Positions 5,577 to 60,453 of a DNA stretch of 64,000 nucleotides are shown here, one piece after another. Source of the DNA: a virus; the IMG/VR virus record IMGVR_UViG_3300029555_000004. The stretch is one strand, 5' to 3'. The translations under genes and the position numbers were made by a program. The stretch's first letter is position 1. Each line of letters begins with the position of its first letter. The notes under the pieces were generated by a model that was not told where the DNA came from, searched no databases, and worked only from the letters and a program-made list of their open reading frames with translations.

Positions 5577-5578
5577 GT

Positions 5579-35431: not shown

Positions 35432-36055
35432 ATGACAAGAGAAGATGTTAAAAAGATTTTTCCAGAAGCAACTGACGAGCAGATTACAGCATTTCTGAAT
35501 CAGTCTAATTCTGATGTGGCTAGAGAAAAAGCAAAAGCCCAGAAGATGAAAGAGGATGCAGAAAAAGCGGAAGCACTGGAAAAAGAACTGGAAGAACTCA
35601 AACAGCAGAACATGACGGAAGCTGAGAAAGCAGAACTGGAACGCCAGAAAGAAAAAGTTGCAAATGAGAAGAGGATTTCTGACCTCGAATCTGCACTTGC
35701 AACGTCCCAGAGAGAAGCCCTAGTAGGAAAAATCACTTCCATTTTTGCTAATGCAGGAATGAAAGGGGATGCTTACGCCGGAGCGATCAAAGCTTTTTCC
35801 AACATGAATGCGGATGATGCTCTTAAAGAAGCCCAGACCTTTGTTGATGGAATTTCCGCAGAAAATAAAGCGACACTTGATACCGCAAAGGCAGCTTGGG
35901 AGAAGGAAGCATTGGAAAACACTCCGAATCCGGGCGGTGGTAGTGGTAGCAAAGATACCGTAAAAAGCGATGCTGCTGAATTTGCAAAAGCTTACTCAGC
36001 AAAAATGAACCAGGAAACTAAATCAGCGGACGGTAACGCCCCTGTAAATATTTAA
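35432..36055 (+). CDS. scaffolding protein (DUF4355-like)
   Basis: Coiled-coil, Glu/Lys/Ala-rich; directly upstream of the capsid genes. Confidence 0.7.
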   Translation: MTREDVKKIFPEATDEQITAFLNQSNSDVAREKAKAQKMKEDAEKAEALEKELEELKQQNMTEAEKAELERQKEKVANEKRISDLESALATSQREALVGKITSIFANAGMKGDAYAGAIKAFSNMNADDALKEAQTFVDGISAENKATLDTAKAAWEKEALENTPNPGGGSGSKDTVKSDAAEFAKAYSAKMNQETKSADGNAPVNI

Positions 36056-36431: not shown

Positions 36432-37469
36432 ATGCCATTTAATGTATTAGAAACAATCACAGAGGAAGAGAGACTTAATTTCTCCCAGAGTTTTGATGTA
36501 AAAAGACCTGGCATCCTTGGTACCATTTTCCCGGATACAAAAACACAATATTTGAAAGCCGAATACTACAGACTTATGGCTGGACAGCGACTGCCAGAGG
36601 TAGCTTTTGTTCACGCACTTGATACCGAAGCAGAAATCGGTTCCAGACCTGGTTTCGAAAAGGTATTGACCGAGAAACTTTTCATTAAGAGAAAAATCAA
36701 TCAGTCTGAGAGATTACAGCAGGCTATTGAAAATGGTGTTCCAGATGACAATAATCTCAAAAAATTTGTATTTGACGATGCAGCCAATCTTTTTGAGGGC
36801 GTAGTCGCAAGGGCGAATGTAATGAAAGGCCAGTTCCTTTCCACTGGTATTGTAAAAATCAAGGAAAATCATGTGGATATGAGCATTGATTACGGCGTTA
36901 CATCTGATGCAAAAGTAACACTCACTGATTGGTCTAAGCCAGACGCAGATATCATGGGCGATATCCAGAAGATGGTAGCCATTGCAGAAGATAACGGATA
37001 TGTGGTAAACAAAGCTCTTACTTCTCTCAAAATGATTAATTACATGAGAAACAATACTGCAATGCAGACCGCTGTTCTTGGAGCTGCAAACAAACGTCTT
37101 CTGACAAAACAGGAGCTTACAAATCTGCTTATGCAGGAGTACGGATTCACAATTGATCGTTGTGATGAAAAATATCGTTACAGAAAAGCAGACGGAACTC
37201 TGAAAACAGGAAGATACTTCAAAGAAGATGTGTTTACTTTGTATGAAGCAAATGCGAATGGCTCCTTTGGCTCCGGACTTTGGGGTGTAACTCCAGAGGA
37301 AACGGAATACAGACAGTTCATCCAGGAAGAGAACCGTTCTTTCGTAACTCTGTCCATGTGGGCTACACCAGATCCAGTTGCAGTATGGACAAAAGCATCC
37401 GGTATGTTCGTTCCTGTTGCACCAAAAGCCAACGGCGGTATCGTAATCGGTACCAAGGCGGGGGAATAA
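36432..37469 (+). CDS. major capsid protein (capsid protein E-like)
   Basis: 345 aa, position, N-terminal MPFNVLE...LNFSQSF pattern. Confidence 0.8.
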   Translation: MPFNVLETITEEERLNFSQSFDVKRPGILGTIFPDTKTQYLKAEYYRLMAGQRLPEVAFVHALDTEAEIGSRPGFEKVLTEKLFIKRKINQSERLQQAIENGVPDDNNLKKFVFDDAANLFEGVVARANVMKGQFLSTGIVKIKENHVDMSIDYGVTSDAKVTLTDWSKPDADIMGDIQKMVAIAEDNGYVVNKALTSLKMINYMRNNTAMQTAVLGAANKRLLTKQELTNLLMQEYGFTIDRCDEKYRYRKADGTLKTGRYFKEDVFTLYEANANGSFGSGLWGVTPEETEYRQFIQEENRSFVTLSMWATPDPVAVWTKASGMFVPVAPKANGGIVIGTKAGE

Positions 37470-37669
37470 CCGGGCATAGTCTCGATGAAAACAGCCAGTC
37501 ACCATCTGTAGCGAGTGCTTATGATGAATCAAAACATAAGTATACAGAAAGCGAGTTGTCTAATATGACTGTATCTCAGTTAAGACAACTTGCAAGTGAT
37601 AACGGCTATGCCCTGACAGCAACTAATAAGGCTGGAATAATATCAGAGATTTTATCTCAGCAAAGGTAG
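37385..37669 (+). CDS. HeH/Rho-N-like motif ORF in the -1 frame of the capsid gene 3' end
   Basis: C-terminus SELSNMTVSQLRQLASDNGYALTATNKAGIISEILSQQ; no RBS at ATG 37385; may be a frameshift extension. Confidence 0.3.
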   Translation: MDKSIRYVRSCCTKSQRRYRNRYQGGGITGHSLDENSQSPSVASAYDESKHKYTESELSNMTVSQLRQLASDNGYALTATNKAGIISEILSQQR

Positions 37670-37677
37670 GTGATTAA

Positions 37678-37998
37678 ATGGACGAACAGCTTATAGAGGA
37701 CTTGACAAATTATCTTGAAGATGATGCAGAAACTGCGAGGATGATTCCTCTTTCGGCAAAGAGGGCTATTCGTTCATTTAAGAAGAAAAGGAATTATCCT
37801 TCATCTTACAGTGATGAGAAAATAAATTCCGATATGGAAAACTGCTATGATTGCATATTTGATTTGGCTCTTTTCTTCCTGGTGAAACAGGGAGCTGAAT
37901 TTCAAGAATCACATTCCGAATCTTCTGTAAACAGAAATTGGACTTCTGAAACTGAAATATATGTAAATCATGGTGTTTTTCCATTTATCGGATTCTAA
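37678..37998 (+). CDS. head-tail connector (gp6/DNA-packaging-like)
   Basis: ~106 aa, position after capsid, pattern typical of the phage_connect_1 family. Confidence 0.5.
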   Translation: MDEQLIEDLTNYLEDDAETARMIPLSAKRAIRSFKKKRNYPSSYSDEKINSDMENCYDCIFDLALFFLVKQGAEFQESHSESSVNRNWTSETEIYVNHGVFPFIGF

Positions 37999-38105
37999 GA
38001 TGGTGTGTGCGTGATACGTCAATCCTCCCACGTATCGCAGGGGTGCTTCAAATTAGGTGGGTAGAAGCAATATCTAAAAAATGGGAGTGATGGAAAGGAA
38101 TAGCG

Positions 38106-38417
38106 ATGGGATGTGAACACGAGTGTATCAACGAACACCGCTTGAAAGAATTGGAAAGTGCCGTCCATGAGATGAAAGAAAAGCATTCCAAAAGGGATGG
38201 AGTTTTTTTTGAACGTATCAATGCTTTGGAACAGAAAATTGCTTTATACAACAATGACCTGGGACACATTAAGGATACAGTTGACGAAATGAACGACAAT
38301 TTAAAATCACTCATGGAAAAGCCAGGAAAGTTACAGGACAAAATAATTGCTTATGTCATAACTGGCATAATTGGTATTGTTTTAGGCTTTGCCCTAAAAG
38401 GCATTTTCCCGGTGTAA
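38106..38417 (+). CDS. XhlA-like membrane protein
   Basis: HRLKELESAVHEMKEKH coiled coil, EKPGK, single C-terminal TM IIAYVITGIIGIVLGFAL as in PBSX XhlA. Confidence 0.55.
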   Translation: MGCEHECINEHRLKELESAVHEMKEKHSKRDGVFFERINALEQKIALYNNDLGHIKDTVDEMNDNLKSLMEKPGKLQDKIIAYVITGIIGIVLGFALKGIFPV

Positions 38418-38449
38418 ATATTGATTCCACTAACAGGGAGGACAGTGGA

Positions 38450-38686
38450 ATGGATGATTATAAAGACTTTTCAGAAGATGAAAGAATCTTCTATTTGCGT
38501 GAAGCTGGATTTGATTCCAGAGAAAAGGAGTTATTCCGATTGCGTGTCTATGAAGAAAAAACGCTTGCAGAAGCTTCAGAAATCATGGGCTACAGCACGA
38601 GAACCGTAGACCGCATAAACAGAAAATTAAAAAAGAAAATTATGAAAGTTGCCCCGATGTATTGTCGGGGCTTTTCTTTGTATTAA
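38450..38686 (+). CDS. mini sigma-70 region-4-like HTH protein (78 aa)
   Basis: REKELFRLRVYEEKTLAEASEIMGYSTRTVDRINRKLKKK. Confidence 0.6.
   Translation: MDDYKDFSEDERIFYLREAGFDSREKELFRLRVYEEKTLAEASEIMGYSTRTVDRINRKLKKKIMKVAPMYCRGFSLY
38651..38679 (+). terminator. intrinsic terminator inside the last codons of the sigma-like gene
   Basis: GCCCCGA-7 nt-TCGGGGC then TTTTCTTT. Confidence 0.85.
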
Positions 38687-38692
38687 TAGAAA

Positions 38693-38759
38693 ATGGCGTA
38701 TTTATGGCGTTATCATGGCGTGTTAATCAACCTCTTATTATTGTAAAATATAGTTATAA
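38693..38759 (+). promoter_or_regulatory. ATGGCGT x3 (11-bp period) upstream of a -10-only promoter
   Basis: Repeats at 38693, 38704 and 38715; TGTAAAAT at 38752-38759; no -35 match. Confidence 0.55.
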
Positions 38760-38779
38760 AAACAAGGGAGGTTTGAGAT

Positions 38780-39277
38780 ATGCAGTATGGTAATCCGTAT
38801 TTTGCACAACCATTTCAACAAATACAGCCGTATCAAGATAGATTAGCACAATTACAGAATAGTTATCAGCAGGCAATGCCATACGGGCAGGCGCAGATTC
38901 AGCAACCAATACAACAAATGCCACAAGTACCACAAATCCCCATGTTGCAAGGACAGATGGTCGATGGTATTGATACCGTAAAGGCAAAAGACGTAGATAT
39001 GTCTGGAAACCCTGTTTATTATCCAAAAACAGATGGAACAGAAATATATAGAAAACAATTACAGGCAGATGGAAGAAGTAGAATTTTTGTTTATCGACTT
39101 ATAAATCCGGAAGAACAACAGCAACCAAAGGCAGAAGAAAAACCAATTGACATAGAAGCTATGTTTAATCAGCTTCGGAACGATGTTTGTTCTGAGATTT
39201 CCGAAATAAAGAGTATGTTTCCGACACAAATGTCGGGAACACCGGAACTCAAGCAGAATGGAGGTAAACAGAGATGA
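38780..39277 (+). CDS. Gln/Pro-rich protein, unknown function
   Basis: N-terminal ~55 aa are about one-third Gln (QPFQQIQPYQDRLAQLQNSYQQ...); GGGAGG RBS. Confidence 0.6.
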   Translation: MQYGNPYFAQPFQQIQPYQDRLAQLQNSYQQAMPYGQAQIQQPIQQMPQVPQIPMLQGQMVDGIDTVKAKDVDMSGNPVYYPKTDGTEIYRKQLQADGRSRIFVYRLINPEEQQQPKAEEKPIDIEAMFNQLRNDVCSEISEIKSMFPTQMSGTPELKQNGGKQR

Positions 39278-39519
39278 ATTTTAGTCCAAACGCCATGATG
39301 AAAAAGCAATTTGAGAAAATGATTACTCAGAGGTTCGGAAGTGTTGATAACATGATAAACGATATGAGTAAATTTGCAGGGAATAATCCAACATTAAAAA
39401 ATGCGTTGGATTTATACAAAAAAGGTGATACAGACCAGTTGCATCAAATACAGCAAAATGTATTTAATGAAAAACACTTATCACCAGATGGAATTATACA
39501 GAAATTCCTTGGATTATAA
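39274..39519 (+). CDS. hypothetical protein
   Basis: ORF track; 4-nt overlap. Confidence 0.55.
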   Translation: MNFSPNAMMKKQFEKMITQRFGSVDNMINDMSKFAGNNPTLKNALDLYKKGDTDQLHQIQQNVFNEKHLSPDGIIQKFLGL

Positions 39520-39615
39520 CACTTCCCCATAATTGGGTGATTAAGAATCGCTACAATTTGGGACGACAGCCGCGGATGTCTCCTATTGTAAATAAAATTT
39601 AAGGAGACTAAAAAC

Positions 39616-40425
39616 ATGATGAATGGTTCAAATTACAGCCTTAGCGACATTGCAGCTGCTACAGGCTCTAATAACCGTGCCAATGATATGTGGGGCGGTG
39701 ATGGCTTTTCACTTATCTGGCTCGTCCTAATCTTCGCAATCTTCGGCTGGGGAGGTTTTGGCGGCTGGGGCGGCGGCTTTGGTGGTAACGGTGGAAACGG
39801 TGCGAACGGTGCCGGCTTCCAAGGATGGGCTACCCGTTCAGATATTAATGAGGAATTCGCCCTTAATGATATTCAGAATGGTATCAGAGGTATTCAGCAG
39901 GGTATCTGTGACAGCACATATTCTCTTAACAATACCATGCAGAGTGGCTTTAATGGTATGAATGTCGGAATGCTTCAAGGCTTTAATGGCGTTCAGCAGG
40001 CAATCAATGCTGATACTGTAGCCGGTATGCAGAATACCAACGCATTACAGTCTCAGTTAGCAAATTGTTGCTGCGAAACAAGAGAAGCAATCCAGGGCAT
40101 CAATTATAACCTTGCCACTAACACTTGTGCTCTCCAGAACACAATGAACAACAACACAAGAGATCTTCTGGAAAACCAGAACAGCAACACAAGAGCAATC
40201 CTTGACTTCCTGACTAACGATAAGATTGCAACATTACAGGCAGAGAACTCTGATCTGAAACGTGCTGCATCCCAGGATCGCCAGTCTGCATTGCTTACAA
40301 CAGAGATGTACGCACAGGCTCAGAGATTAATCAATGCAATCAACCCGGCTCCGATTCCTGCATTCCAGGTTCCAGCTCCATATGCATACGCAGGATGTAA
40401 TACATATGGTAACGGTTGTTGCTAA
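39616..40425 (+). CDS. Gly-rich/Asn-Gln-rich membrane-anchored protein with Cys clusters
   Basis: TM LIWLVLIFAIFGW followed by GGFGGWGGGFGGNGGNGANG, internal CCC, C-terminal GCNTYGNGCC; AAGGAG RBS. Confidence 0.6.
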   Translation: MMNGSNYSLSDIAAATGSNNRANDMWGGDGFSLIWLVLIFAIFGWGGFGGWGGGFGGNGGNGANGAGFQGWATRSDINEEFALNDIQNGIRGIQQGICDSTYSLNNTMQSGFNGMNVGMLQGFNGVQQAINADTVAGMQNTNALQSQLANCCCETREAIQGINYNLATNTCALQNTMNNNTRDLLENQNSNTRAILDFLTNDKIATLQAENSDLKRAASQDRQSALLTTEMYAQAQRLINAINPAPIPAFQVPAPYAYAGCNTYGNGCC

Positions 40426-40504
40426 GTAACTCACCCTTAGAGGTTGACTAAATTCTAAGAGGTGGGTTGCGGCTCACCTCTTATTTTGATTGAGAGGTAG
40501 AAAT

Positions 40505-40930
40505 ATGAGTTGTAAAAATGTTTGTAAGCTCTGCAACCGTCTTGTAATAAGCCAAGCTGTTGCGTTTACAGGAGGTAATCTTGTAATCACACTCCCAGAA
40601 GGCAGTTACAACAATGGAGAGAAATATTGTATTGTTGTTGCACAAAGTATACCAGAAGCCACTACAATTACTGCTCCGGTAATGATTCAGATAGGAACAG
40701 GAACAACTTTGTATCCGCTAGAAAATCGTTGCTGTGCACAGATTACGGCTTGTGGAATAAGAACCAGAACGAAGTACGCAACCAGAGTAGCTACAAGTGC
40801 AACTGGCGGAGTATTCAAGATGTTAGGAAATCCGGCTTGTAGTCCGAGCAACAATTTGAAAGCAATTAATGGTACAGCCCCAACGACAGAAGCACCTGTT
40901 ACGCAGGCTGTTAGAAAGGGGGCACTGTAA
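40505..40930 (+). CDS. Cys-rich protein, unknown function
   Basis: MSCKNVCKLCN...RCCAQITACG; GAGAGG RBS. Confidence 0.55.
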   Translation: MSCKNVCKLCNRLVISQAVAFTGGNLVITLPEGSYNNGEKYCIVVAQSIPEATTITAPVMIQIGTGTTLYPLENRCCAQITACGIRTRTKYATRVATSATGGVFKMLGNPACSPSNNLKAINGTAPTTEAPVTQAVRKGAL

Positions 40931-41562
40931 TGCATAAAGTTGCAATGGAAATGGGAAAATGGGCTATGGAAAAAGCCAAAACACATGGCTTTGATAATCT
41001 TAGTGCTCAAGACTGGGACGATTTGAAAGACTGCATGGAAGCAGTAAAATGTGCGATTTGCGCTGATAAAGATTATCGTATTGTGGAAGCTATGGATGAA
41101 TGCGAACAGGAAGAAAAGTATCTTGGACGCATGGGATATGACCGTTACCGCTATTCAAATGGGCGTTTCGCTCCAAAAGGTAGGGGAACCAGAAAAGGCT
41201 ATAGACCGTATCTGTATATGCAGGATGATGACTGGATGGATGAGTATTTAAACAATCCAGAATTTGAGCGCAATATGTACCGCATGGGATATCATCCAGA
41301 TCGTAGTGATATGGAAAATGATGGTATGAATATGAATTGGAAGAAATCCAGATATGGCGAATCCTATGATAAATACGATGAGAATCGTAGACACTATCAT
41401 GATTCCAAAGACACGGAATCCAAGAGAAAAATGGATGATTCCATGAAAGAATACACATCAGATATTATTCGTAATCTCACGGAAATGTGGTCAGATGCAG
41501 ATGCAACACTCAGACAGTCAATGAAAGCTGACCTGACCAGACTTGTACAGCAGATGAACTAG
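40930..41562 (+). CDS. Tyr/Arg/Asp/Met-rich low-complexity protein
   Basis: ORF track; abuts the upstream stop. Confidence 0.55.
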   Translation: MHKVAMEMGKWAMEKAKTHGFDNLSAQDWDDLKDCMEAVKCAICADKDYRIVEAMDECEQEEKYLGRMGYDRYRYSNGRFAPKGRGTRKGYRPYLYMQDDDWMDEYLNNPEFERNMYRMGYHPDRSDMENDGMNMNWKKSRYGESYDKYDENRRHYHDSKDTESKRKMDDSMKEYTSDIIRNLTEMWSDADATLRQSMKADLTRLVQQMN

Positions 41563-41581
41563 AGCAATAAATGAATTAAGT

Positions 41582-41615
41582 CCTTGTCGCGAATTAATGC
41601 GGCAGGGGCTTTTTT
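41582..41615 (+). terminator. intrinsic terminator
   Basis: CCTTGTCGC/GCGGCAGGG stem then CTTTTTT; followed by AGAAAGGATGGT, the same 12-mer found after the box A terminator. Confidence 0.7.
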
Positions 41616-41638
41616 CGTAGAAAGGATGGTAAGAAACC

Positions 41639-42025
41639 ATGCTGAAACAATTCTATATGAACGGGTACTTATGGAGAGTTCGCTTTGTTTCTCCCCATGA
41701 TAATGTTTTGATTGACCGCACAGGAAAACGCACACTTGCTGTATCTGATTACTCTACAATGACAATTTCGATTGCAAACAACTTGCATGGTGAACTTCTA
41801 AATCGTGTATTTATTCATGAATTAGGGCATTGTGTGATGTTCAGCTACGGTTTACTTACAGAGCTTCACCGCATGGTTAAGAAACGATACTGGGTAGATG
41901 CAGAGGAATTTGTATGCAATATTCTGGCAGACTATGGACAGTTTGTTATTGGCACAGCCAGAGATATCTTAGGAAACCAGTTCACATATGTAGCTCCCAT
42001 TGGGGCAGAAAGGATGATTGCGTAA
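41639..42025 (+). CDS. small HExxH zinc-metallopeptidase-like protein
   Basis: FIHELGHCV motif. Confidence 0.55.
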   Translation: MLKQFYMNGYLWRVRFVSPHDNVLIDRTGKRTLAVSDYSTMTISIANNLHGELLNRVFIHELGHCVMFSYGLLTELHRMVKKRYWVDAEEFVCNILADYGQFVIGTARDILGNQFTYVAPIGAERMIA

Positions 42026-42268
42026 ATGGCAAAAGCAGAAAACACAATTATTTTTGATGGCATTCAGTACAATCCAGGTGATGAATTGCCGGATTTAGGC
42101 AGTTGGGTATGTACAGATGCAAAAGGTATGGTTCGTGATTACGAGGGGCTTTCAAAAGATGTATCAAAGCTCCCACATTATGTACAGAGCGGTTCTTCGG
42201 CGTTGTGCCTTGATACCTCTGAATTATACGAGTATCACAAACCTACAGACACATGGTACAGGTTGTAA
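42026..42268 (+). CDS. hypothetical protein
   Basis: ORF track. Confidence 0.5.
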   Translation: MAKAENTIIFDGIQYNPGDELPDLGSWVCTDAKGMVRDYEGLSKDVSKLPHYVQSGSSALCLDTSELYEYHKPTDTWYRL

Positions 42269-42279
42269 AGGAGAAGCGT

Positions 42280-43719
42280 ATGGCATTAACAGCAAAGAAA
42301 GTATATGCAATATTAAAACGCCAGATTTCCGATATGGAATCACAACTGAATCATCCAGTTAGATATAAAGGAACAGTCGCTACAGCAGATTTACTCCCAC
42401 TAAATCCAGCCATTGGAGACATGTATAATATCGAATCCAAATCCATCTATGGCGGAGCAGGAATGAATGTGGCATGGAACGGCGTAGTTTGGGACACTAT
42501 GGGCGCTCCAATTGATATGTCACTGTATCTCACAAAAGAAGAATCAGAGACGGTAATACAAAGATTAGTTACGGAATATTTTGAAAAGAATCCAGTCAAG
42601 CCTGGAGCCACGACAGAACAGGCACAGCAGATCGAGCAGAACAAGACAGACATTGCTTCACTGAAAACGGAAACTGGTTCACTAAAGGAAGATTTAGAGA
42701 TTTCGCTATTAGAGAATGACAGATTATATGAAGGTACAAATCTTGCCGAAAAATTCAAAGATGAAATCGCTAATTACTCAGACATCTGGCAGTGGATCAA
42801 AGCCAGAATCAAGGCAGGAAACTTTGCGGGTATTCATGTAAATGATTTTATCCGCTGGCAGACAACAGATAAGAAATGGATTGAATCCCGTATTGCTGGT
42901 ATCAACACATATAAGAGATATGGAAACCAGGCGGCGCCAGACCACATTGATTTCATATCAAAGGATTTGTGGCCGACTCTGCATGTTATGCAGCCAGTCA
43001 ACTATAACAATGGCGTAATCCCTATCGAAAATCTGTCAGGGGATGGCGCAAAAACAACATTTACTCTGGTAAATGAAATGGCGGGGATCGCGTCTGTTAC
43101 AGTCGGCGGTACCGCAGTGACAAGCTACACATACGATATTGATACCCACACAATTACTTTCAGCGAAGCACCAGTGACGGGAACGAATAATATCGTGGTA
43201 ACCGGAACTGGTTCAATGCACCCTTGGTTATCATCAGATCTGTATTTATACGCAAACAGTCTTAGAGGTCATGTACCGAGTGGTACAAGCAAGACCTCAC
43301 CTGTTAAGTTAGTAGATTACAGGGACGATGGTATTTGGTCTAAACTGCCAGATGAGCTGAAATCCGTAATCGTAACGAAACGCGCATTACTCTCTCAGCG
43401 ATATTCAGCATCTGGGGTGTTATCAAATAATAATTCCTGGGGCTGGCAGGATACGGGTAAACTCTGGATCCCGTCAGAAATTGAGGTGTATGGGCATGGT
43501 GTATGGGCAAATAACGGATATGATAAAGGTGGATTTGTCCAGTATCCGATATTCAACTGCAATATGGGACGTATAAAAGGACTGGGTGACTGGTGGTTGA
43601 TTTCTGATTCCGATGGCAACACCAGCTACTTCTGTGGTGTCACCGGCGGCGGTAATGCCAGCCACGCCGTTGCTTCCGCCACCTGGGTGGGGCTGCCCGT
43701 CTGCTTCCGAATTGCGTAG
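42280..43719 (+). CDS. fibre-like structural protein (head or tail fibre)
   Basis: N-terminal YKGTVATADLLPLNPAIGDMYNI...NVAWNGVVWD motif common in Firmicutes phage fibre proteins. Confidence 0.5.
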   Translation: MALTAKKVYAILKRQISDMESQLNHPVRYKGTVATADLLPLNPAIGDMYNIESKSIYGGAGMNVAWNGVVWDTMGAPIDMSLYLTKEESETVIQRLVTEYFEKNPVKPGATTEQAQQIEQNKTDIASLKTETGSLKEDLEISLLENDRLYEGTNLAEKFKDEIANYSDIWQWIKARIKAGNFAGIHVNDFIRWQTTDKKWIESRIAGINTYKRYGNQAAPDHIDFISKDLWPTLHVMQPVNYNNGVIPIENLSGDGAKTTFTLVNEMAGIASVTVGGTAVTSYTYDIDTHTITFSEAPVTGTNNIVVTGTGSMHPWLSSDLYLYANSLRGHVPSGTSKTSPVKLVDYRDDGIWSKLPDELKSVIVTKRALLSQRYSASGVLSNNNSWGWQDTGKLWIPSEIEVYGHGVWANNGYDKGGFVQYPIFNCNMGRIKGLGDWWLISDSDGNTSYFCGVTGGGNASHAVASATWVGLPVCFRIA

Positions 43720-43737
43720 TGAAAGGAGATTAAATCT

Positions 43738-43932
43738 ATGAATTATAAAGCCGAAATAGTAGCACTTAAAAGCTTACTCGCTGACACCGATTACAAGGCA
43801 TTAAAACATGCTGATGGTGCAATGAGTGATGAAGAATACGAGTCTGTTAGAGTACAGAGAGAAGAATGGCGTAGACTTATCAACGAATATGAAGAAAGAG
43901 TGAAAGATATGGATGAATCTGAGTTTATGTAA
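43738..43932 (+). CDS. hypothetical protein
   Basis: ORF track; AGGAGA RBS. Confidence 0.5.
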   Translation: MNYKAEIVALKSLLADTDYKALKHADGAMSDEEYESVRVQREEWRRLINEYEERVKDMDESEFM

Positions 43933-43984
43933 TTAACTAAAGAAAGCTTTAGTTAAGCAACCAAATTTAAGAAAGAGAGGAAAT

Positions 43985-44377
43985 ATGAGAGGATTAGTTC
44001 GTCAAAAACAAAAAGTATATTGGTCACGAATATCCGAAAAGACAGAAGGATTAGACCGAATTAAGGTTTATGAGAAACCAGCTTTGTACTCTTTTTCCGT
44101 ATCATCTACAGCCGGAACACCGGAAGAAATCGCAGCCGGAATAGTGCCAGATTATGACAGATACATTACAAGCTTTAATCGAAATTTCCATCCACAGGAA
44201 GCAGATATATTTTGGATAGACAGAATCCCACAAATAAGCGAGGATGGAAGCCTTATTTTGGACGAAGATGGCGAGCCTACAGTATTGCCAGATTATGTAC
44301 TAAAGAAGATTTTAGACACACAAAAAGGCAATATTGCCAGATACGGAATTTCCAAGAGAGGAAATGAGGATGGGTAA
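43985..44377 (+). CDS. putative head-closure/head-tail adaptor protein
   Basis: Size and position before the gp10-like gene. Confidence 0.4.
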   Translation: MRGLVRQKQKVYWSRISEKTEGLDRIKVYEKPALYSFSVSSTAGTPEEIAAGIVPDYDRYITSFNRNFHPQEADIFWIDRIPQISEDGSLILDEDGEPTVLPDYVLKKILDTQKGNIARYGISKRGNEDG

Positions 44378-44885
44378 GACAATAAAGTGTACCTTATCAC
44401 AGAAGTCAATCCGGAATGCTATTGATGAAATAAAAAATTATCAAAAATCTTTAAGGAGCAAAAATGAAATCTTCATAAAAAGATTATGTGAATTAGGGAT
44501 TCCAGTTATTGACCAAAATATTTTGGCAGCACAAGGCGATTCTGATAAAAACTACAATACTTACATCAAAATTAACAGTTTTGGTAATTATGCAGAAGCC
44601 CATTTAATATGCGAAGGCAAAAGCATTTTATTCATTGAATTCGGCGCTGGTATTTACCAAAATGGTGCAGCCGGTTCTAGCCCACATCCAAAAGGAGAAG
44701 AATTTGGTTATACAATCGGTTCTTACGGACAAGGAAAAGGAAAATACGATTCCTGGGTATATGTCTCCGATTCTGGCGAATGGGTTCGCTCTTACGGTAC
44801 AGAAGCCACAATGCCAATGTATAAGGCAAGCGTAGAAATCATTCAGAATATCCGCAAAATCGCCAAAGAGGTGTTCTCTTCCTAA
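44370..44885 (+). CDS. HK97 gp10-like neck/tail-completion protein
   Basis: FIEFGAG motif and position. Confidence 0.5.
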   Translation: MGKTIKCTLSQKSIRNAIDEIKNYQKSLRSKNEIFIKRLCELGIPVIDQNILAAQGDSDKNYNTYIKINSFGNYAEAHLICEGKSILFIEFGAGIYQNGAAGSSPHPKGEEFGYTIGSYGQGKGKYDSWVYVSDSGEWVRSYGTEATMPMYKASVEIIQNIRKIAKEVFSS

Positions 44886-44933: not shown

Positions 44934-45011
44934 TACAGTGTTAAATTGTAGCATAAAATGCAATGCGTTCACTATGAAGGTGGGCGCATTTTTTATTGTG
45001 AGGTGACAGAT

Positions 45012-45413
45012 ATGCCGGACACAATAGAATCCCCTGTACTGGAAGTTTTTTCAAGGTGGGGAGCGGCTGTTTCTAAGATTACCGGTGCAGACAATTATTC
45101 CATGGATGGGAGCGAGACAAATGCTTCCGGAAAAAAGGCATATGCACAGCTTTATATGCTCGGAAATCCAACTACGAAAGGTGACCTTGAAGGGGATGAA
45201 TGCGCAACAATGCCATCATTTCAAGTAAATTGTTTCACATCTGGTAGCAAAGCATTAACCAGAGTGTATGAATTGGACAAGATAAGTCACAAAGCTATGG
45301 TGAGCATGGGATTCCGTCGTACATATGGACCGGAGCTTATGTTTTTTGGTGACAGTGGAATCAAAAAGCTTGTGAGCCGATACAGCCGGATATATACAGG
45401 AAAATTACTTTGA
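45012..45413 (+). CDS. putative tail terminator/tail-completion protein
   Basis: ATG 45012 after GAGGTGA; position before the major tail gene. Confidence 0.4.
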   Translation: MPDTIESPVLEVFSRWGAAVSKITGADNYSMDGSETNASGKKAYAQLYMLGNPTTKGDLEGDECATMPSFQVNCFTSGSKALTRVYELDKISHKAMVSMGFRRTYGPELMFFGDSGIKKLVSRYSRIYTGKLL

Positions 45414-45471: not shown

Positions 45472-45765
45472 ATGGATCAGATTTTAAGTTATGTAAAGCC
45501 AGAATTACTTATTGTCGTTGTATTTCTTTATTTTATCGGAGAAATGATTAAAAAGTCAGAGAATATTTCTGACAAATTTATTCCAATGATTTTAGGAATT
45601 CTTGGTGTATTAATTTGCGGTCTTTATGTTTTTGCAACATCTACAGTTTCCGGTTCACAGGAAGTTGCAATGGCACTGTTTACCGCAATTACACAAGGCG
45701 TTATCGTTGCCGGATTAAGTAATTATGTAAATCAAATTATTAAGCAAGCAGGAAAAGAAGAGTAG
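45472..45765 (+). CDS. holin-like protein (phage_holin_4/phi LC3-type pattern)
   Basis: YVKPELLIVVVFLYFIGEMIKK...DKFIPMILGILGV...ITQGVIVAGLSNYVNQIIKQ; three hydrophobic segments. Confidence 0.65.
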   Translation: MDQILSYVKPELLIVVVFLYFIGEMIKKSENISDKFIPMILGILGVLICGLYVFATSTVSGSQEVAMALFTAITQGVIVAGLSNYVNQIIKQAGKEE

Positions 45766-45840: not shown

Positions 45841-46371
45841 ATGGCAGATTTAACAACACTTGGCGTAACTTTTCATTACGGTGTTGAAACCGTTAAAGGA
45901 ACGAAGCCAACTGCATTCACCTGGTTAAAAAGATGTAGTTCTATTGGTGGAATTTCTCTTGATACAGAACAGATTGACGTATCCGCACTCGAAGACTTCA
46001 TTACACAGTACGCATCTGGTAGACAGGATACTGGTGGTACTTGGGATGTAACCTTCAATCTTAACGCTGATGTTATCACAGCATTAAAGAAGCTTATGAC
46101 TGATACGGCAACAGGAAAGACAAAAGGATTTAGAGTTTGGTTTGAAGTTGTATTTCCAGACCTCGAAGATGCATTCTTTGTTATCGCAGACCCTGGAAAA
46201 AATATTCCACTGTCTGACATTGGGCAGAATGAAGCAGCAACAATTCCGCTGTCTCTCATTATTCAGGAATACAAAGGTCTTGATACAAAAGTTGTTTCCG
46301 AAGAGCTTGCACAGGCTTTAGACACCGCAAAAGCAGTAGCAGATTCCACAGGCGCAATGGCACTCAGCTAA
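45841..46371 (+). CDS. major tail protein
   Basis: 176 aa, position before chaperones and tape measure, pattern resembling phi13/TP901-1-type MTP. Confidence 0.7.
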   Translation: MADLTTLGVTFHYGVETVKGTKPTAFTWLKRCSSIGGISLDTEQIDVSALEDFITQYASGRQDTGGTWDVTFNLNADVITALKKLMTDTATGKTKGFRVWFEVVFPDLEDAFFVIADPGKNIPLSDIGQNEAATIPLSLIIQEYKGLDTKVVSEELAQALDTAKAVADSTGAMALS

Positions 46372-46824: not shown

Positions 46825-47219
46825 CTTTTCGAGAAGCTGTTTACCAAGAGATTCTTCCTTTATACCTCTCTATTGGTGTATCTAAAGAAGAATTTATGGA
46901 TTCTACTCCAACAGAGTTAAAGCCTTATCTTGAAGCTGAAAAGATACGCCAAAAGAGGAAAGATGCCGAACTCTGGCAAGCGGGCATTTATGAAACATCA
47001 GCCACATTCACAGCTGTTGCAAATGCTTTAATCGGAAAAAAATCCAAGGCAGAGTATTTGAAGAAACCTTTACTTGAATCAGCAGAGGAAGAAAAGCGTA
47101 AACAGGAAGGTATACTTTCCGAAGAAGAAAAGAAAAAACAGAGAAACGCACTTTTGGCAAGCTTGCAACTCATGCAGGCAAGCTTTGAGCTTAACCATGA
47201 AAAGGGCAGGCAGGATTAA
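46810..47219 (+). CDS. tail assembly chaperone -1 frameshift extension (gpT-like)
   Basis: The -1 frame is open from 46692 to 47219; AAAAAG at 46810-46815 precedes the gpG stop. Confidence 0.55.
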
Positions 47220-47245
47220 CACTCTTGTCTGCCCTTTATTTTTTT
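47204..47245 (+). terminator. hairpin + T-run between chaperone and tape measure
   Basis: GGGCAGGCAGGA/TCTTGTCTGCCC stem (12 bp incl. GU), 7-nt loop holding the gpT stop, TTTATTTTTTT. Confidence 0.65.
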
Positions 47246-47268
47246 GTAAAAAAGGAGGGATAAATAAA

Positions 47269-50200
47269 ATGGCTGACAATACCATTGATACCCTTGATAT
47301 ACAGATTAGCAGTAGTACAGAAAAAGCAGTACGTGCGCTGACTAATCTTTCAAATAAACTTACAGAAGTTAATTCCGCATTAAGCGGAGTTAATACAAAT
47401 GGACTGCGTAGTTGTGTAAGGGAACTTGGAAAACTAAAAGAACTTGATATAGGGAAAATGACAAGCATTGCTGATGGAATTGGAAAATTCTCAAATTCCA
47501 TAAAGACAATGGGCGGAGTAGATTATAAAGGCTCTGGTCTGAATGCAGTTATCAACTCAATCAACAGGCTTAGCCAGATTGATGTTAGTGGATTTGATTC
47601 TGGAAAACTTGGAGAAATAATCCATAAATTAAGCAATTTGGCAGAGATTCCAGATGTATCTTCCGGTGTTAATCGTTTTGTTAATTCAATGGCTAGATTA
47701 GCCAATTCCGGTGAATATATTGCGAATGTATCAGCTGAATTGCCTGGGCTTGGAAGAAATCTTAAATCAATTGTAGAGAGTTTTACGAGCGTTGGCGATA
47801 TATCTGAACCTGTGAATAGGTTAGTTCAGTCTATTGCACAATTGGCAAGCTCTGGAAATAAAATCGGACAAACATCAAGCCAACTTGGAACACTAGCAAA
47901 GGAAGTATTATCTTTCTTCGATGTGATGAAAACTGCGCCTAAAATCAGCGAAAACACTGTAAGAATGACAGAAGCTTTGGCACATTTAGCTACTGCAAGT
48001 GGGAAAATAAATAAAGTCACAAATTCTCTTACGAATTCATTTTCGAGATTATCAAATGCCACAAATGGACTTGGAAATGCAGGAAGAAAATTATCTTCCA
48101 TGATTGGCTCTGCAAGCTCTGCACTAGCTAATTTTGGAAATACCGCAAATGTAACCACAAGGAAGACTGGTTCATTAACTTCACAGCTTGCAGGATTATA
48201 TGCAAAATTTTTTACTGTGACAAGAGGAATTAAAGCACTTTGGAATTCTGTAAAGTCTGCATCTAATTATGTTGAAACATTGAACTATTTCAATTCTGCG
48301 TTCGATCAAGTTACTGATGGATTAGATATCAGCAAGTGGCAGAATGCAGGAGTAAAATCCGCAGAGGAATATGTTGGTTCTTTTGAAAAACGTGCAAAAG
48401 AACTTACAAAAAAAATGACTGGATTTGAAGTATCAGATGCAGGAGATCTGACACGTATATCTGGTGGCAGTCTAGGTCTTAATCCAAACGACACCATGAA
48501 TTATCAAGCTACTTATGCGCAGATGGCATCATCAATGGGGGCAACAGCAGATGCATCAACTAAGGTTTCACAAGCTTTAACAGAAATCGGATCAGACCTT
48601 GCTTCTGTAAAAAATCTTGAATTCAACGATGTTTGGAATGATATGGCTTCTGGCATAACCGGAATGAGCAGGGCACTTGATAAATATGGTATTAATATCC
48701 GTGTAGCAAATTTACAACAGGAACTTTATAATCTTGGAATTGACGCTACTGTATCAAGTCTAAGCCAGTCAGATAAAGCTATATTAAGAACAATTACAAT
48801 ATTGAATAGTTCTAAATATGCATGGGCTGATTTGGCTTCAACAATTAATCAACCAGCCAACCAGGTTCGTATGTTGAAATCTAATTTCGAAGCACTTGGT
48901 AGAAGTATCGGAACATTGTTCCTCCCTATTGTTGCAAAAGTACTTCCATATATTAACGGTCTTTTTATGGCATTGGAAAGAGCTTTTTCTTGGCTCGCAA
49001 AACTACTTGGCATTAAGCTATCGGATTATGTATCTTCAACTGGAAAAGCTTCAGTCGATATGGGAGATATTGCAGACAGCACAGATAATGCTGCATCCGG
49101 GCTCGACAATGCAAACGACAATGCGAAGAAATTACAAAAAACTCTTTCTGTTCTTTCCTTCGATGAATTGAACCAGTTGAATGATAACAAGACATCAAGT
49201 TCAAGTGGAAGCTCGGGCAGCGGGGCTCCGGGAAGTGCCCATATACCAGAACTGGACGCTGCTTTCGATAAAGCACTTTCTGATTATCAAAAAGCATGGG
49301 ATCAAGCATTTGCAAATGTTGAGAATAAAGCGCAAACTGTATCTGATAAGATTATCAAGGCATTTAAACAAATCAGAAAGAATGCAAAGCCAACCACTGC
49401 CGCAATAAAGAAGCTTTATAATGAAGGTCTAAGCAGACTAGGAAATTTTTCGATTAATGCTTTGAAAAATTTGTGGAAGAATTACCTCCAGCCAATCGGT
49501 AAATGGTCATTATCAAACAACTCAGGATTTCCAAGATTCTTTAACATTACAAATGATTTGCTGACAAAAATCAACTGGTTAAAGCTCCAAACTTCTTTAG
49601 AAGGATTGTTTACTATGCTCCAAAAGCCAACACAATTTGTTTGGACGGGACTTATGGATTTTTACGAGCATTTTCTCGTTCCAGTCGGAACTTGGACGAT
49701 GAACGGCGCAATTCCACAATTAGTTGATGCGTTGACCAGTTTCGGAAACAACATTCATTGGGAAGAACTTAATAAATCACTGAAAAATTTCTGGGATGCA
49801 TTGGCTCCATTTGCAAAGAATGTAGGACAAGGCATTGTGGATTTTTATAAAGATTTACTTAATGTCGGAGAGAATTTCATCAATTCAACTGTTCCTGGAG
49901 GTCTAAATTCTATCGCAGAAGCAATAAAAAATATAAGTCCCGAAACAGCACAAGCTATAGGAAAGAGTCTCGGCCAAATTTCTTTGGCGATTCTAGGATT
50001 CAAAGGATTAACCTTTATTGGTGGAATCATTGGAAAAGACAGCCCATTAGGAAAAGGACTTTCTTTACTGGCAAAACATCCTTATGCGTCAATGGCACTT
50101 GGCATCGGTGGAATCGTACTTGCGCTTGATAATTTCGGAGTTATTGATGTTGACTGGGAGTGGATTTGGAGCAGTATTGACCGTGTAAAAACCTCAATAC

Positions 50201-52225: not shown

Positions 52226-52339
52226 TGGTATAATTTTTTTAATGAAGAAGTACACACGGTCTTGATTTTTGAGCCGCTAAGAAGAAATTAACATTTCTCA
52301 ATTTTGAGGAATTTTTATCTTACTTGGCGGCTCTTTTTT
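52226..52339 (+). promoter_or_regulatory. extended -10 promoter followed by branched terminator
   Basis: TGGTATAAT at 52226-52234; stem GAGCCGCTAAG/CTTACTTGGCGGCTC (52271-52333) then T6. Confidence 0.5.
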
Positions 52340-52372
52340 ATTTTATCCATCAATATAAGGAGGAATGGAAGA

Positions 52373-53062
52373 ATGGGAAATGAAGTTTTAGTAACAAGCG
52401 AACAGACACCTATTGAGATTGCACTTGGGATTGACGAAGAAGGCATGACTACTGCAAGAAAACTATATTCATTTTTAGAACTTGCACAGGGACAATTTTC
52501 AAGATGGGCGAAAACAAATATTATCGACAATTCATTTGCGGTAGAAAATGAAGACTATTGGGGGTTCGACATTGATGTCGAGGGTAATAAAACTGTTGAT
52601 TATAAGATAACTGCCCATTTTGCCAAAAAACTTTCAATGCTATCAAAATCTGAAAGAGGAGAACAAGCAAGAAATTATTTTATTGGTTGCGAACAATCCT
52701 TAAAAATTGCTTTTAAAAAGCAGCGTGCAGCAGAACTTGAACGAGCCAAAGGAATAGCAGTAAGACAGGCATTGACAAAGGCAATCCAGCAATCTTCTGA
52801 AAATGAAAGAATGCACGGACATGCCTATTCTACATATACGGACGTTATTTACAAGTCCATATTTGGCAAAAACGCCAAGCAACTAAGAGAGGAATTCGGA
52901 ATCACAAAAAAAGAAAGTATGAGAGATTATTTTTCAGAAGAAGAGTTGGTGAAAGTTCAGAACGCAGAAATGCTTGTAAGTGCGTTGGTCGGATATGGCT
53001 GGGGGTATAACGAAATTAAAGAATTTATTCTGAATAAAGGAATTAATAAAATTGCGGCATAA
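52373..53062 (+). CDS. AntA/AntB-type antirepressor-like protein
   Basis: FSRWAKTNII...EDYWGF...DYKITAHFAKKLSMLSKSERGEQARNYFI; AAGGAGGAA RBS. Confidence 0.6.
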   Translation: MGNEVLVTSEQTPIEIALGIDEEGMTTARKLYSFLELAQGQFSRWAKTNIIDNSFAVENEDYWGFDIDVEGNKTVDYKITAHFAKKLSMLSKSERGEQARNYFIGCEQSLKIAFKKQRAAELERAKGIAVRQALTKAIQQSSENERMHGHAYSTYTDVIYKSIFGKNAKQLREEFGITKKESMRDYFSEEELVKVQNAEMLVSALVGYGWGYNEIKEFILNKGINKIAA

Positions 53063-53152
53063 ATTTTGATCTTTTAGACAGCTCGCATTTAAAATGAGGT
53101 CTGGAAATGTTCGATTTAAAATAGAACCTTACAATGGGGAGGGAAAGCAAAA

Positions 53153-53368
53153 ATGTCATATAAAAATTATTGCGTTGTAAGCAAAGAAGTGCTTCATAAT
53201 AGAAATATTTCCCTTGAAGCAAAGGGAATATACGCTTTAATGATGAGTGTTGGCAAAGATAATTTTAATGTAAAGGAATTATATGATCTTTCAAAAGAAG
53301 AAATAAATGTTATTGATAATGCGATAAATGAGTTAGAAAAACTCGGTTACGTAACTCTTGAAAAATAA
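53153..53368 (+). CDS. small winged-helix/HTH protein
   Basis: ISLEAKGIYALMMS...AINELEKLGYVTLEK pattern. Confidence 0.4.
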   Translation: MSYKNYCVVSKEVLHNRNISLEAKGIYALMMSVGKDNFNVKELYDLSKEEINVIDNAINELEKLGYVTLEK

Positions 53369-53500
53369 TTCGGTAAAATCAGTGGGCTAGGTTGGCCGCC
53401 GAAAAGCGTAATTCCATGATACGTCTGTCCACTGTTTTTATAAATCATGGGTCTGCGACAAGAAAGTAGTCACGCATTAACGACATGGAGGTTATCTAAT

Positions 53501-54670: not shown

Positions 54671-55299
54671 AAAGAATCAAAGCACTACTGGCAACCATTA
54701 TCTGTATTTGCGTTATCACAGGGCTAACAGGCTGTGCAGCGAATGACGATTACATGAATGACGTGAAAGGAAATCTTTCTGGTAACAGCTACACAATCTA
54801 TACCTACGACAACTACGGTCAAAAGGTTATGACTACCACTGGGGACAAGATCAACATTGCCGGGAATAAAACCAAATCCAAGGGCTACGATAGTGAGGGA
54901 AATGAAACAACCAGCTACGATGTATCTTCCGTCATTACAATTCTGATTGACGGTAAAGAAATTGAAAGCTGTGGTGATACTTGTATTTTTGAGCAAAAAG
55001 GATTGAAGCCAGAGGTTGATTTTACCCAGGAGGATATAATTAGCCATTCAACTGGGAAGATTTCAGAGAACACATACATAGCCGGGATTGTGAATTATTA
55101 TAAAAATTATTTCGGGAAATCTAGGGTTGTAGTAATAAAATCTCAACTCGGGCAACCGATAGCCGCATATTCTGGTGACGAGGTGTTCTGGAAAATCCCG
55201 GACGATCTGCCTAAAATGACAAAGCTAATGATTGACGGAAAAGCTCTTTATATCCACAGGGCAAATTTCCAGATTATTGATAAAGAATTACTGCAATAA
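54667..55299 (+). CDS. lipoprotein
   Basis: Signal peptide with lipobox LTGC (MKRIKALLATIICICVITGLTGCAAN). Confidence 0.7.
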   Translation: MKRIKALLATIICICVITGLTGCAANDDYMNDVKGNLSGNSYTIYTYDNYGQKVMTTTGDKINIAGNKTKSKGYDSEGNETTSYDVSSVITILIDGKEIESCGDTCIFEQKGLKPEVDFTQEDIISHSTGKISENTYIAGIVNYYKNYFGKSRVVVIKSQLGQPIAAYSGDEVFWKIPDDLPKMTKLMIDGKALYIHRANFQIIDKELLQ

Positions 55300-60450: not shown

Positions 60451-60453
60451 AAT

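Follow-up and report, generated by a model that had tools for sequence, protein, structure and literature searches.

A gene module centred on a predicted membrane protein is shared by gut phages of unrelated hosts

Among the described systems that come closest to the locus treated here, HK97 gp15 is a superinfection-exclusion moron and p16.7 of phage phi29 is a membrane-anchored coiled-coil organiser of phage DNA replication. A transmembrane (TM) protein, a peptidase and a helix-turn-helix (HTH) protein are also frequent companions in defence operons. The locus lies in a 64,000-nucleotide stretch of IMG/VR record IMGVR_UViG_3300029555_000004, called the window below, which comes from human gut metagenomes and belongs to a tailed phage that measures about 80 kb and has a GC content of about 38%. 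At 38780-41562 the window carries a cassette of five genes, P1 to P5, which encode proteins of strongly biased composition. This cassette is one copy of a syntenic module common to thousands of gut phages of unrelated hosts. A literature search on the family identifiers and the carrier phages gave no description of the module or of the function of any member, and the individual families are catalogued as unknowns only (phrog_16490, phrog_21718, phrog_20016, phrog_22984, phrog_3754 and DUF7841).

The five genes are on the plus strand: P1 (38780-39277, 165 amino acids, aa), P2 (39274-39519, 81 aa), P3 (39616-40425, 269 aa), P4 (40505-40930, 141 aa from an ATG or 146 aa from a TTG at 40490), and P5 (40930-41562, 210 aa). 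The ATG start of P4 is favoured because the N-termini of its homologues read MSCKN or MACKN. A Shine-Dalgarno-like site is found before all five genes, and the stop-start overlaps between P1 and P2 and between P4 and P5 suggest translational coupling. From more than 597 IMG/VR matches, 80 loci were kept as a set of close relatives, and P1-P5 are all conserved in every one of these that covers the region, with identities of 74-100% for P1, 85-100% for P3, and 83-100% for both P4 and P5. P2 is 74-100% identical, or is swapped for an allele of about 30-33% identity in about 12 loci. Homologues in a collection of 5.8 billion proteins, all of them unnamed, number 3,858 for P4, at least 7,912 for P3 and 1,455 for P5. 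As judged from the sequence, P1-P5 are genuine genes and not chance frames. The five open reading frames (ORFs) of the original prediction, which was made from the letters of the window, are reproduced here in coordinates and in composition, the latter with the window's own ORFs as baseline, and the Shine-Dalgarno-like sites and the conservation add to them.

A tblastn search with P3 against 50,697 phage genomes returned 33 records, all from faeces, gut or rumen and including crAss-like phages. With a crAss-like P3 as query the number rose to 49, including two Caudoviricetes with Methanomassiliicoccales hosts that are depositor-assigned and unverified. Only three carriers are cultured, namely Butyrivibrio phage Ceridwen, Clostridium perfringens phage XP41-N3 and Bacteroides uniformis phage C3_41T2LP. 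A P3 profile matches at least 2,598 clusters (50% identity) at E<=1e-3, and 1,402 at E<=1e-10, among 1.84 billion cluster representatives; the best 150 clusters are uniformly of about 230-300 aa and have no domain fusions. A scan of GTDB with one genome per species gave 51 loci in Lachnospiraceae, Oscillospiraceae, Acutalibacteraceae and other Clostridia, and also in Bacteroidales (Bacteroidaceae, Alistipes, Paludibacteraceae), Selenomonadales, Sphaerochaeta, and metagenome-assembled genomes labelled 'Bacilli' or 'Mollicutes'. The closest genome-resolved relative of the window P3 (58% identity) is on a 486-kb contig of Lachnospira intestinalis, which probably represents a prophage. An association with plasmids or integrative and conjugative elements was dropped because P3 matches 2 of 72,556 plasmids.

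The consensus order of the module was derived from iterative hidden Markov model (HMM) searches and from slot-by-slot inspection of 53 loci. It starts with a small HTH gene of the sigma-70 region 4 (r4) type (about 30 loci), followed by an optional phrog_3754 gene, P1 (38 loci), P2 (37), P3 (53), the P4 slot (43), the P5 slot (47) and an optional gene with an HExxH motif. P2 proteins have 55-103 aa, the P4 slot is occupied by Cys-containing, beta-rich proteins of 137-172 aa, and the HExxH proteins have about 105-125 aa. More than 40 divergent loci, which represent at least five bacterial lineages, share this gene order, and the slot types are mixed and matched between loci. Ceridwen and XP41-N3 carry equivalent genes in the same order; the version of crAss cr52_1 is rearranged, and crAss-like and some 'Bacilli' or 'Mollicutes' loci have a gene rich in Arg, Tyr and Asp before P3. 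The original prediction had treated P1-P5 as one cassette, and these genes do belong together, but it missed that the unit is a widespread module and that it reaches to the HExxH gene (41639-42025, plus strand). Its suggestion that the sigma-like gene goes with the cassette is upheld, since an r4-type HTH gene is just 5' of P1 in about 30 of the 53 divergent loci. Endonuclease genes also lie between genes of the module. Ceridwen (L001, 9109-9903) has an HNH-like endonuclease gene between the P4 and P5 slots, and Dulem virus 33 (L139, 6073-6624) has an opposite-strand endonuclease between P2 and P3.

P3 is the signature protein of the module and corresponds to phrog_16490 (E=1.5e-65), a family of unknown function. 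The window protein contains 13.4% Asn, has Cys at positions 98, 151-153 (CCC), 171, 261, 268 and 269, and places 16 Gly within residues 44-70 (GWGGFGGWGGGFGGNGGNGANGAGFQG), directly after its hydrophobic segment. P3 was aligned across Clostridia, Butyrivibrio, C. perfringens and crAss-like phages, and the family statistics were taken on 91 full-length representatives. These have an acidic N-tail of about 30 residues (0.5 K/R and 2.9 D/E), then a single, short and very hydrophobic TM segment, which starts at about residue 30 and is flanked on both sides by Gly/Trp/Phe belts. About nine Gly fall in the 30 residues after the TM segment, and the C-flank carries 1.3 K/R. A long N/Q-rich helical region follows, with the motif (Q/A)(S/A)QLA(N/S)CCC(E/D), the CCC of which is present in 137 of 148 sequences. 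Further features of the family are a PxP(I/V)PA(F/Y) motif and, at the C-terminus, a tail of Cys and Gly (for example GCGCGC or GNGCC), and the median protein has 10 Cys. The tail was considered as the core of a ribosomally synthesized and post-translationally modified peptide, a candidate that was dropped, as maturation enzymes are absent and the protein is a TM protein of 270 aa.

An AlphaFold2 model of P3 built from 65 sequences, with a predicted local distance difference test (pLDDT) score of 47.1, places the TM segment at residues 31-42 and helices at 86-122 and 144-242, the latter of about 100 residues. Annotators of crAss-like phages gave P3 the remote-homology labels 'spike protein/glycoprotein' and 'outer capsid protein/viral fibre'. 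By the charge-difference rule, the C-flank of the TM segment would be on the cytoplasmic side, because it is more positive than the N-tail. Firmicutes avoid Cys in exported proteins. Sequence inspection found neither a signal peptide nor a TM segment in P1, P2, P4 and P5, and no lipobox protein in the cassette. The charges that flank the TM segment, the lack of signal peptides in P1, P2, P4 and P5, and the Cys content argue for a cytoplasmic P3 stalk.

Two further features of P3 genes concern their continuity. In two divergent Clostridia loci (L089, 1023-3173, and L134, 6428-8303) the gene is interrupted precisely at the CCC motif by inserts that encode GIY-YIG homing endonucleases of 288 aa and 214 aa, respectively, and the DNA of the 5' junction is conserved between both loci. 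L089 has at 2541-2777 a full-length match to an Rfam group I intron model (34.6 bits, E=1e-6), which is below the gathering score. In L003 (crAss cr52_1, 3751-7640), L119, L121, L126 and L127, P3 and its neighbours have in-frame stops under the standard code. These stops, which made the P3 homologue appear as two ORFs, fit stop-codon reassignment in these crAss-like genomes.

P4 of the window contains eight Cys, at positions 3, 7 and 10 (CxxxCxxC), 42, 76 and 77 (CC), 83 and 112, and its homologues show conserved Cys. Its AlphaFold2 model, made from a low-diversity alignment of 63 sequences, has a pLDDT of 56.7, and the core at residues 11-85 is all beta, with pLDDT 70-83. Foldseek comparison of the model with the PDB gave nothing below E=0.7. 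In BFVD the model matches five uncharacterised gut-virome proteins (E from 3e-11 to 2e-5), and there are weak, high-rmsd (root-mean-square deviation) matches of this low-confidence model to hyaluronidase and tail-fibre proteins (E from 2e-3 to 0.1). The P4 slot is filled by at least three apparently unrelated beta-rich types. Type A is that of the window and is present in XP41-N3 too, type B/D corresponds to phrog_20016 (E=9e-66 and 7e-8), and type C is that of the crAss-like phages. An hhalign comparison found no relation between types A and B; for types A and C it gave E=0.052 with a probability of 1%, which is suggestive at most. One type B/D member from another phage matches BclA_C at E=8e-4 with a sub-threshold 19.7 bits for a 38-bit cutoff. 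The iterative P4 HMM recruited two Bacteroidales/Sphaerochaeta proteins. A radical S-adenosylmethionine enzyme, as a reading of the CxxxCxxC motif of P4, was dropped, since the protein is too small and all beta and the motif is missing from the other slot types. A further BFVD match of the P4 model is a 294-aa 'DUF7841 domain-containing protein' from crAss-like virus sp. ctRQZ5 (A0A8S5LXP6), with 87 aligned columns, an rmsd of 2.9 and E=1e-3; by this model comparison, domains of the P5 and P4 types may be naturally fused in it.

P1 consists of a Gln/Pro/Tyr-rich N-terminus, a conserved domain of about 60 residues and a coiled-coil-like C-terminal helix. Its Gln content is 17.6%, for a background of 3.8%, and its Pro content is 9.1%; 28 of the first 60 residues are Gln or Pro. 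The protein belongs to phrog_21718 (E=6e-18), a family of unknown function, and neither a Pfam scan of 27 diverse homologues nor a 27-sequence profile searched against PDB sequences gave a match. P2, which starts within the stop region of P1, is a helical protein rich in Met, Gln and Asn, and its equivalent in Ceridwen is phrog_22984. P5 has helical N- and C-terminal segments around a disordered middle rich in Arg, Tyr, Asp and Met, with 9.0% Met, 12.4% Asp, 8.6% Arg and 7.6% Tyr overall, and 47 of the 102 residues at 64-165 are one of these four. The window family keeps the motifs RMGY, NGRFAPKGRG and SRYGESYD inside this 'low-complexity' region. At least three types fill the P5 slot: the window type, the Ceridwen type with FUS-like RGG/SYG stretches, and the DUF7841 type (PF25223, E=3e-42). 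They have short Arg-Tyr motifs in common, such as RDSMGRYS, NGRFAPKG and TGRYVSR, and their fraction of Arg, Tyr and Asp is 0.20-0.39 across about 47 loci.

The HTH gene of the window (38450-38686, plus strand) encodes a protein of 78 aa that matches Pfam Sigma70_r4 (E=4e-7, 29.9 bits for a cutoff of 24.1) and PHROG transcription-regulator families. As the position of its homologues suggests, it is a candidate dedicated regulator of the module. Several elements on the plus strand resemble the signals of a self-contained transcription unit. A terminator-like hairpin with a 9-bp stem, six GC pairs and a T-tract lies at the 3' end of the HTH gene (38651-38671) and would insulate P1-P5 from upstream transcription. 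A hairpin of 12 pairs between P3 and P4 (40456-40483) is terminator- or attenuator-like, and a strong terminator-like hairpin of 14 pairs, seven of them GC, with a T-tract is found after P5 (41578-41611). The region 37400-44000 has eight terminator-like sites for 3.8 +/- 2.0 in shuffled sequences. Between the first hairpin and P1, three direct ATGGCGT repeats with an exact spacing of 11 bp occupy 38693-38721. This pattern occurs nowhere else in the 64-kb window, the chance expectation being 0.13 for a pattern of two repeats, and the repeats are exactly kept at the same relative position in 16 close relatives. They may be the operator or activator site of the cassette promoter, to which the HTH protein would bind. 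Under a strict hairpin test within 200 nucleotides, 7 of 37 divergent loci are positive 5' of P1 and 9 of 33 are positive 3' of the P5-slot gene; the background is 3% of random 200-nucleotide windows. An Rfam scan of 37000-44500 gave nothing useful.

Peptidase-like genes recur in the module. The 128-aa HExxH protein of the window matches phrog_1233 (E=3e-10) and the 'peptidase' family phrog_13742 (E=1e-3), and H60, E61, L62 and H64 (HELxH) are invariant in its homologues. These come after P5 in Lachnospiraceae loci and in Dulem virus 39, and a 'PolyVal metallopeptidase' is at the equivalent place in Bacteroides phage C3_41T2LP. The protein has no Pfam match, and its top PDB profile match, the minigluzincin MJ1213, is not significant (E=0.29). 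It may be a minimal metallopeptidase of the gluzincin type, and its gene often closes the module. The optional Cys-rich protein before P1, of about 125-155 aa, is phrog_3754; it has invariant Cys17, His97 and Asp108 in a papain-like pattern, and the window copy of the module is without it.

The searches against known families gave little else. P1-P5 have no match to anything CHARACTERISED in Pfam, NCBIfam, PADLOC or, by phmmer, PDB sequences. In PHROGs, only families of unknown function are matched, by P1 and by P3; the cassette proteins have no match to a structural PHROG family, and P3 has none to a holin or spanin family in Pfam or PHROG. PDB profile searches with diverse alignments of the type B P4-slot proteins, the papain-like proteins, the HExxH proteins and P1 returned nothing significant. 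P3 has a marginal PADLOC match to ZorA (E=0.0057), and no other cassette protein has a meaningful match. The original prediction recognised no standard virion or lysis protein among the five, and the searches of Pfam, NCBIfam, PDB and PADLOC, which gave no homology to characterised families, agree with it. It had also proposed sensitive profile searches and Foldseek; as run here, these returned no characterised homologue for P1-P5, and for the P4 model nothing from the PDB.

The position of the module in the genome varies widely. In the window it occupies the neck region, with head genes on one side and tail-joining genes on the other, and in Dulem virus 35 it is between the portal and minor capsid genes and the scaffold and major capsid genes. 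In bajarodcaudo virus 5, Ceridwen and XP41-N3 it closes the late operon, behind the holin and lysin genes, and in a Vescimonas fastidiosa prophage it comes after holin and amidase and abuts host DNA. It adjoins the integrase in Dulem virus 33, has genes of replication and recombination around it in Dulem virus 39 and C3_41T2LP, and is beside a diversity-generating retroelement in crAss cr52_1 and the putative archaeal viruses. These varied positions and the flanking terminators speak against a role in the virion and favour an accessory operon that is autonomous in the manner of a moron. We hold with high confidence that this is an autonomous accessory module of gut phages, which includes the HTH gene and, in many lineages, a small peptidase, and does not include the XhlA-like gene of the window.

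For the function of the module, the reading that we prefer is a membrane-anchored complex that acts in the infected or lysogenic cell and not in the virion, with a probability of about 0.35. We infer the topology and oligomeric state of P3, the protein contacts, the regulation and the biological role as follows. A self-regulated operon of the moron type would move between unrelated tailed phages of anaerobic gut microbes, and its HTH protein would control a promoter just 5' of P1, which in the window has the three ATGGCGT repeats and an intrinsic terminator on either side. P3 would enter the cytoplasmic membrane by its TM segment, leaving the acidic N-tail outside and extending its helical, Cys-rich stalk into the cytoplasm, and it probably oligomerises as a coiled-coil fibre. 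P4, which is beta-rich and has no signal peptide, would cap or decorate the P3 stalk, its slot being swapped in the way of fibre tips. The disordered P1 and P5 and the small helical P2 would attach as adaptors, and the small peptidase, of the HExxH kind here and of the papain-like Cys-His-Asp kind elsewhere, would process one component. The favoured role is to alter the inner face of the membrane, for example for the exclusion of competing phages or for the control of a membrane-dependent late step; the tethering of phage components is another candidate. That the cassette has a membrane-associated role had been suggested in the original prediction, and the conserved single TM segment of P3 makes it plausible.

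Several points weigh against this membrane complex. Both AlphaFold2 models are poor (pLDDT 56.7 and 47.1), so that stalk, tip and trimer exist at the level of models only, and the topology of P3 depends on small differences in charge. The promoter match 5' of P1 is weak, with 9 of 12 consensus positions, and the strict terminator test is positive in just about 20-27% of the divergent loci. The module is fixed in all of the about 80 close relatives and is inside the structural operon, a pattern that would suit a core late function better than a dispensable moron; it has one position in all of them, and its divergence does not exceed that of the structural genes. Carriers include crAss-like phages, which are not classical temperate phages. 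To our knowledge, superinfection-exclusion factors are single small proteins and not operons of five to eight genes, and no homology found here points to a function.

The alternatives that survive best are a virion component and a lysis module, which are unlikely to the same degree. If the products were virion-associated, P3 and P4 could form a head, neck or whisker fibre, or P1, P3 and P5 could be internal proteins that are ejected, with the hydrophobic, Gly-rich segment of P3 entering the host membrane as the DNA is delivered. The module is indeed near structural genes in the window (head-tail connector on one side, head-closure and tail-terminator genes on the other), in Dulem virus 35 and in crAss cr52_1, has strong Shine-Dalgarno sites and is present in all close relatives. 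The P4 model has its weak Foldseek likeness to tail-fibre and hyaluronidase proteins, P3 has been labelled 'viral fibre', and Cys-rich cytoplasmic proteins freed by lysis are compatible with virion parts. However, the same module is found in phages of differing architecture, such as HK97-like siphophages and crAss-like phages, and also outside structural operons, that is, after lysis genes, at prophage-host junctions, beside an integrase and among replication genes. Terminators bracket it, structural PHROG families are lacking, and a strongly hydrophobic TM-like segment and a dedicated HTH protein would be unusual for fibres. Internal or ejected proteins, one of the roles offered in the original prediction, are unlikely for a module whose position ranges from head and neck to post-lysis, prophage-end and replication regions, in phages with differing virion types.

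In a lysis module, P3 would be a class-III-like holin, an antiholin or a timing factor (as T4 T) and the other proteins its regulators. The membrane is a target available in every host type, the module comes directly after holin and endolysin in at least five phages or prophages, and crAss cr52_1 has a 'lysis regulatory protein-like' TM and coiled-coil protein two genes 5' of P3. Next to the cassette of the window there is also an XhlA-like membrane protein, a coiled-coil protein with a C-terminal TM segment (38106-38417), which is directly 5' of the HTH gene and after the head-tail connector. It scores 21.1 bits with Pfam XhlA for a cutoff of 34.7, matches the 'hemolysin' family phrog_937 (E=2e-13), and has weak PADLOC matches (E about 1.5e-3). 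This gene had been proposed as a partner of the cassette, and as a member of the module it is rejected, since it is linked in only 6 of the 53 loci; in Dulem virus 35 the head-tail connector is followed by a small gene with a holin annotation although the module is elsewhere, an arrangement which suggests that the XhlA-like gene is a neck-region gene and not a cassette gene. Canonical holins are moreover already present in XP41-N3, bajarodcaudo virus 5, the Vescimonas prophage and the window, where the holin (45472-45765, phrog_1129, E=3e-22) is between the tail-terminator-like and major tail genes. P3 matches no holin or spanin family, the module is often far from lysis genes, and five soluble or disordered partners and Cys-rich beta proteins are unprecedented in lysis cassettes. 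The window holin is in an unusual spot for a lysis gene and is present in only a subset of the close relatives, and no endolysin was seen in the annotated parts of the window.

A phage-borne anti-phage defence or abortive-infection system, with a membrane effector, sensors or adaptors, a protease and the HTH protein, is quite unlikely. Moron-like placement and insulation, together with the combination of TM protein, peptidase and HTH protein, would suit such a system, and the slot-wise swaps of P2, P4 and P5 suggest an arms race. PADLOC gave no meaningful match beyond the marginal one of P3 to ZorA (E=0.0057), and a nuclease, an NTPase or another typical enzymatic effector domain is missing. 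Fixation in about 80 close relatives is unlike the behaviour of defence islands, and the module is present in crAss-like phages.

A more far-reaching variant of the membrane complex, to which we give a similarly small chance, is a condensate-like layer of low complexity, made of the P3 belt, P1, P5 and P2, around a membrane-anchored, Cys-rich fibre of P3 and P4, which would be a new cell structure made by a phage. If so, the condensate-embedded fibre could tether progeny or phage machinery to the membrane, or could cross-link when the reduced, anaerobic contents meet oxygen outside the gut, and it would be an environment-specific adaptation of the phages of strict anaerobes, independent of host phylum.

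A cross-linked matrix like that of the spore coat or exosporium, or a function in sporulation, is very improbable. Its attraction is the composition, in which P1 parallels GerQ (Gln), P4 parallels CotY and ExsY (Cys), and P5 parallels CotG and ExsB (Arg and Tyr), and the sub-threshold BclA_C match of an alternative P4-slot protein points the same way. The papain-like Cys-His-Asp protein could in principle be a transglutaminase, and the module is limited to anaerobes, where Cys would be reduced until exposure to air. The likeness to spore-coat proteins and to YjcZ-like peptides that had been seen in the cassette is compositional only, with no significant match to a coat or exosporium family in Pfam or NCBIfam. 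The carriers infect non-sporulating Bacteroidales, Selenomonadales and Sphaerochaeta as well, and the window copy is without the papain-like gene. That P1-P5 are chance low-complexity frames, as their skewed composition and the lack of annotation in databases might suggest, is already refuted by conservation: homologues number in the thousands, gene order is kept across phyla, the genes have Shine-Dalgarno sites, and motifs inside the 'low-complexity' parts are invariant.

Most genes of the gut virome are without known function, and this module is common to the phages of abundant Lachnospiraceae and Oscillospiraceae and to crAss-like phages, and possibly to viruses of methanogens, while the sequenced phages of other habitats, roughly 50,000 in number, are without it. 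A function that crosses types of envelope and virion and yet is confined to the anaerobic gut would mean a general, unknown step in the life of these phages. As three cultured phage-host pairs carry the module, the question is directly testable.

The genes around the cassette complete the description of the window. On the head side are the scaffold (35432-36055), the major capsid gene (36432-37469) and a gene for a 106-aa protein that we assign as head-tail connector (37678-37998). On the tail side are tail-side genes at 43985-44885, a tail-terminator-like gene (44958-45413) and the major tail gene (45841-46371). At 42026-43719, 3' of the HExxH gene, there are genes of 80 aa and 488 aa, each present in some close relatives only, which suggests that phages of this family gather accessory genes in a neck-region hotspot; the 488-aa protein has a weak 'virion structural protein' match and a C-terminal domain with WW and Cys. 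A tape-measure-like gene of 1,711 aa (47074-52209) is followed by three genes at 52304-55299 that resemble another accessory insertion, in the tail region, and encode an anti-repressor (52304-53062), a replication-initiator-like protein (53447-54670) and a lipoprotein-like protein (54667-55299, phrog_2316). A frame that is open for more than 1,183 codons (60449-64000) runs off the end of the window and is probably a large tail or fibre protein.

The comparison with known systems finds partial likenesses to several of them. YjcZ-like peptides have about 30-50 aa, whereas P3 has 269 aa with a long helical domain and no Pfam or NCBIfam match. The minigluzincins, such as MJ1213, and the PolyVal metallopeptidases resemble the HExxH protein, whose family keeps HELxH unchanged at a length of about 105-128 aa and whose equivalent in C3_41T2LP is annotated as PolyVal; the PDB match is not significant (E=0.29), and the catalysis of the HExxH protein is putative. 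With the exosporium of Bacillus (BclA with its TNF-like C-terminal domain, BxpB/ExsFA, Cys-rich ExsY/CotY) the module has in common Cys-rich parts that would be made in the cytoplasm, a proposed logic of stalk, trimeric head and anchor, and the weak BclA_C match of phrog_20016. It differs in that P4 of the window has no BclA_C match, a collagen repeat is absent, an alpha-helical TM protein would form the stalk, and some hosts do not sporulate.

Class III holins (T4 T) and i-spanins share with P3 an arrangement in which one TM segment, at the N-terminus, precedes a large domain that contains conserved Cys, and the module is often near lysis genes; unlike them, it has no family match, is accompanied by separate canonical holins and has many soluble partners. 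Many carrier phages also infect monoderm Clostridia, hosts that do not call for spanins. Protein p16.7 of phi29 has the layout proposed for P3, an N-terminal TM segment and a cytoplasmic coiled coil, the module is among replication genes in some phages, and the Arg/Tyr-rich P5 could potentially bind nucleic acid. There is no sequence likeness between the two, P3 is twice as long and Cys-rich, and the module is mostly in late regions.

Trimeric fibres, such as reovirus sigma-1, HylP-type tail fibres and trimeric autotransporter adhesins, recall the long predicted helix of P3 and the exchangeable, beta-rich P4. In the module, however, P3 is TM-anchored and probably faces the cytoplasm, and stalk and tip are separate polypeptides. 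From morons of the HK97 gp15 type the module differs in having five to eight genes with an HTH protein and a peptidase, in being fixed in close relatives, and in lacking sequence likeness to known exclusion proteins. It resembles them as an accessory unit in a structural operon or at a prophage end that is bracketed by terminator-like hairpins, has a putative promoter region of its own, encodes a predicted membrane protein and is independent of the type of virion. The module fits none of the known kinds of phage system with which it was compared here, and once its function is found it may prove to be a variant of an exclusion device or of a fibre.

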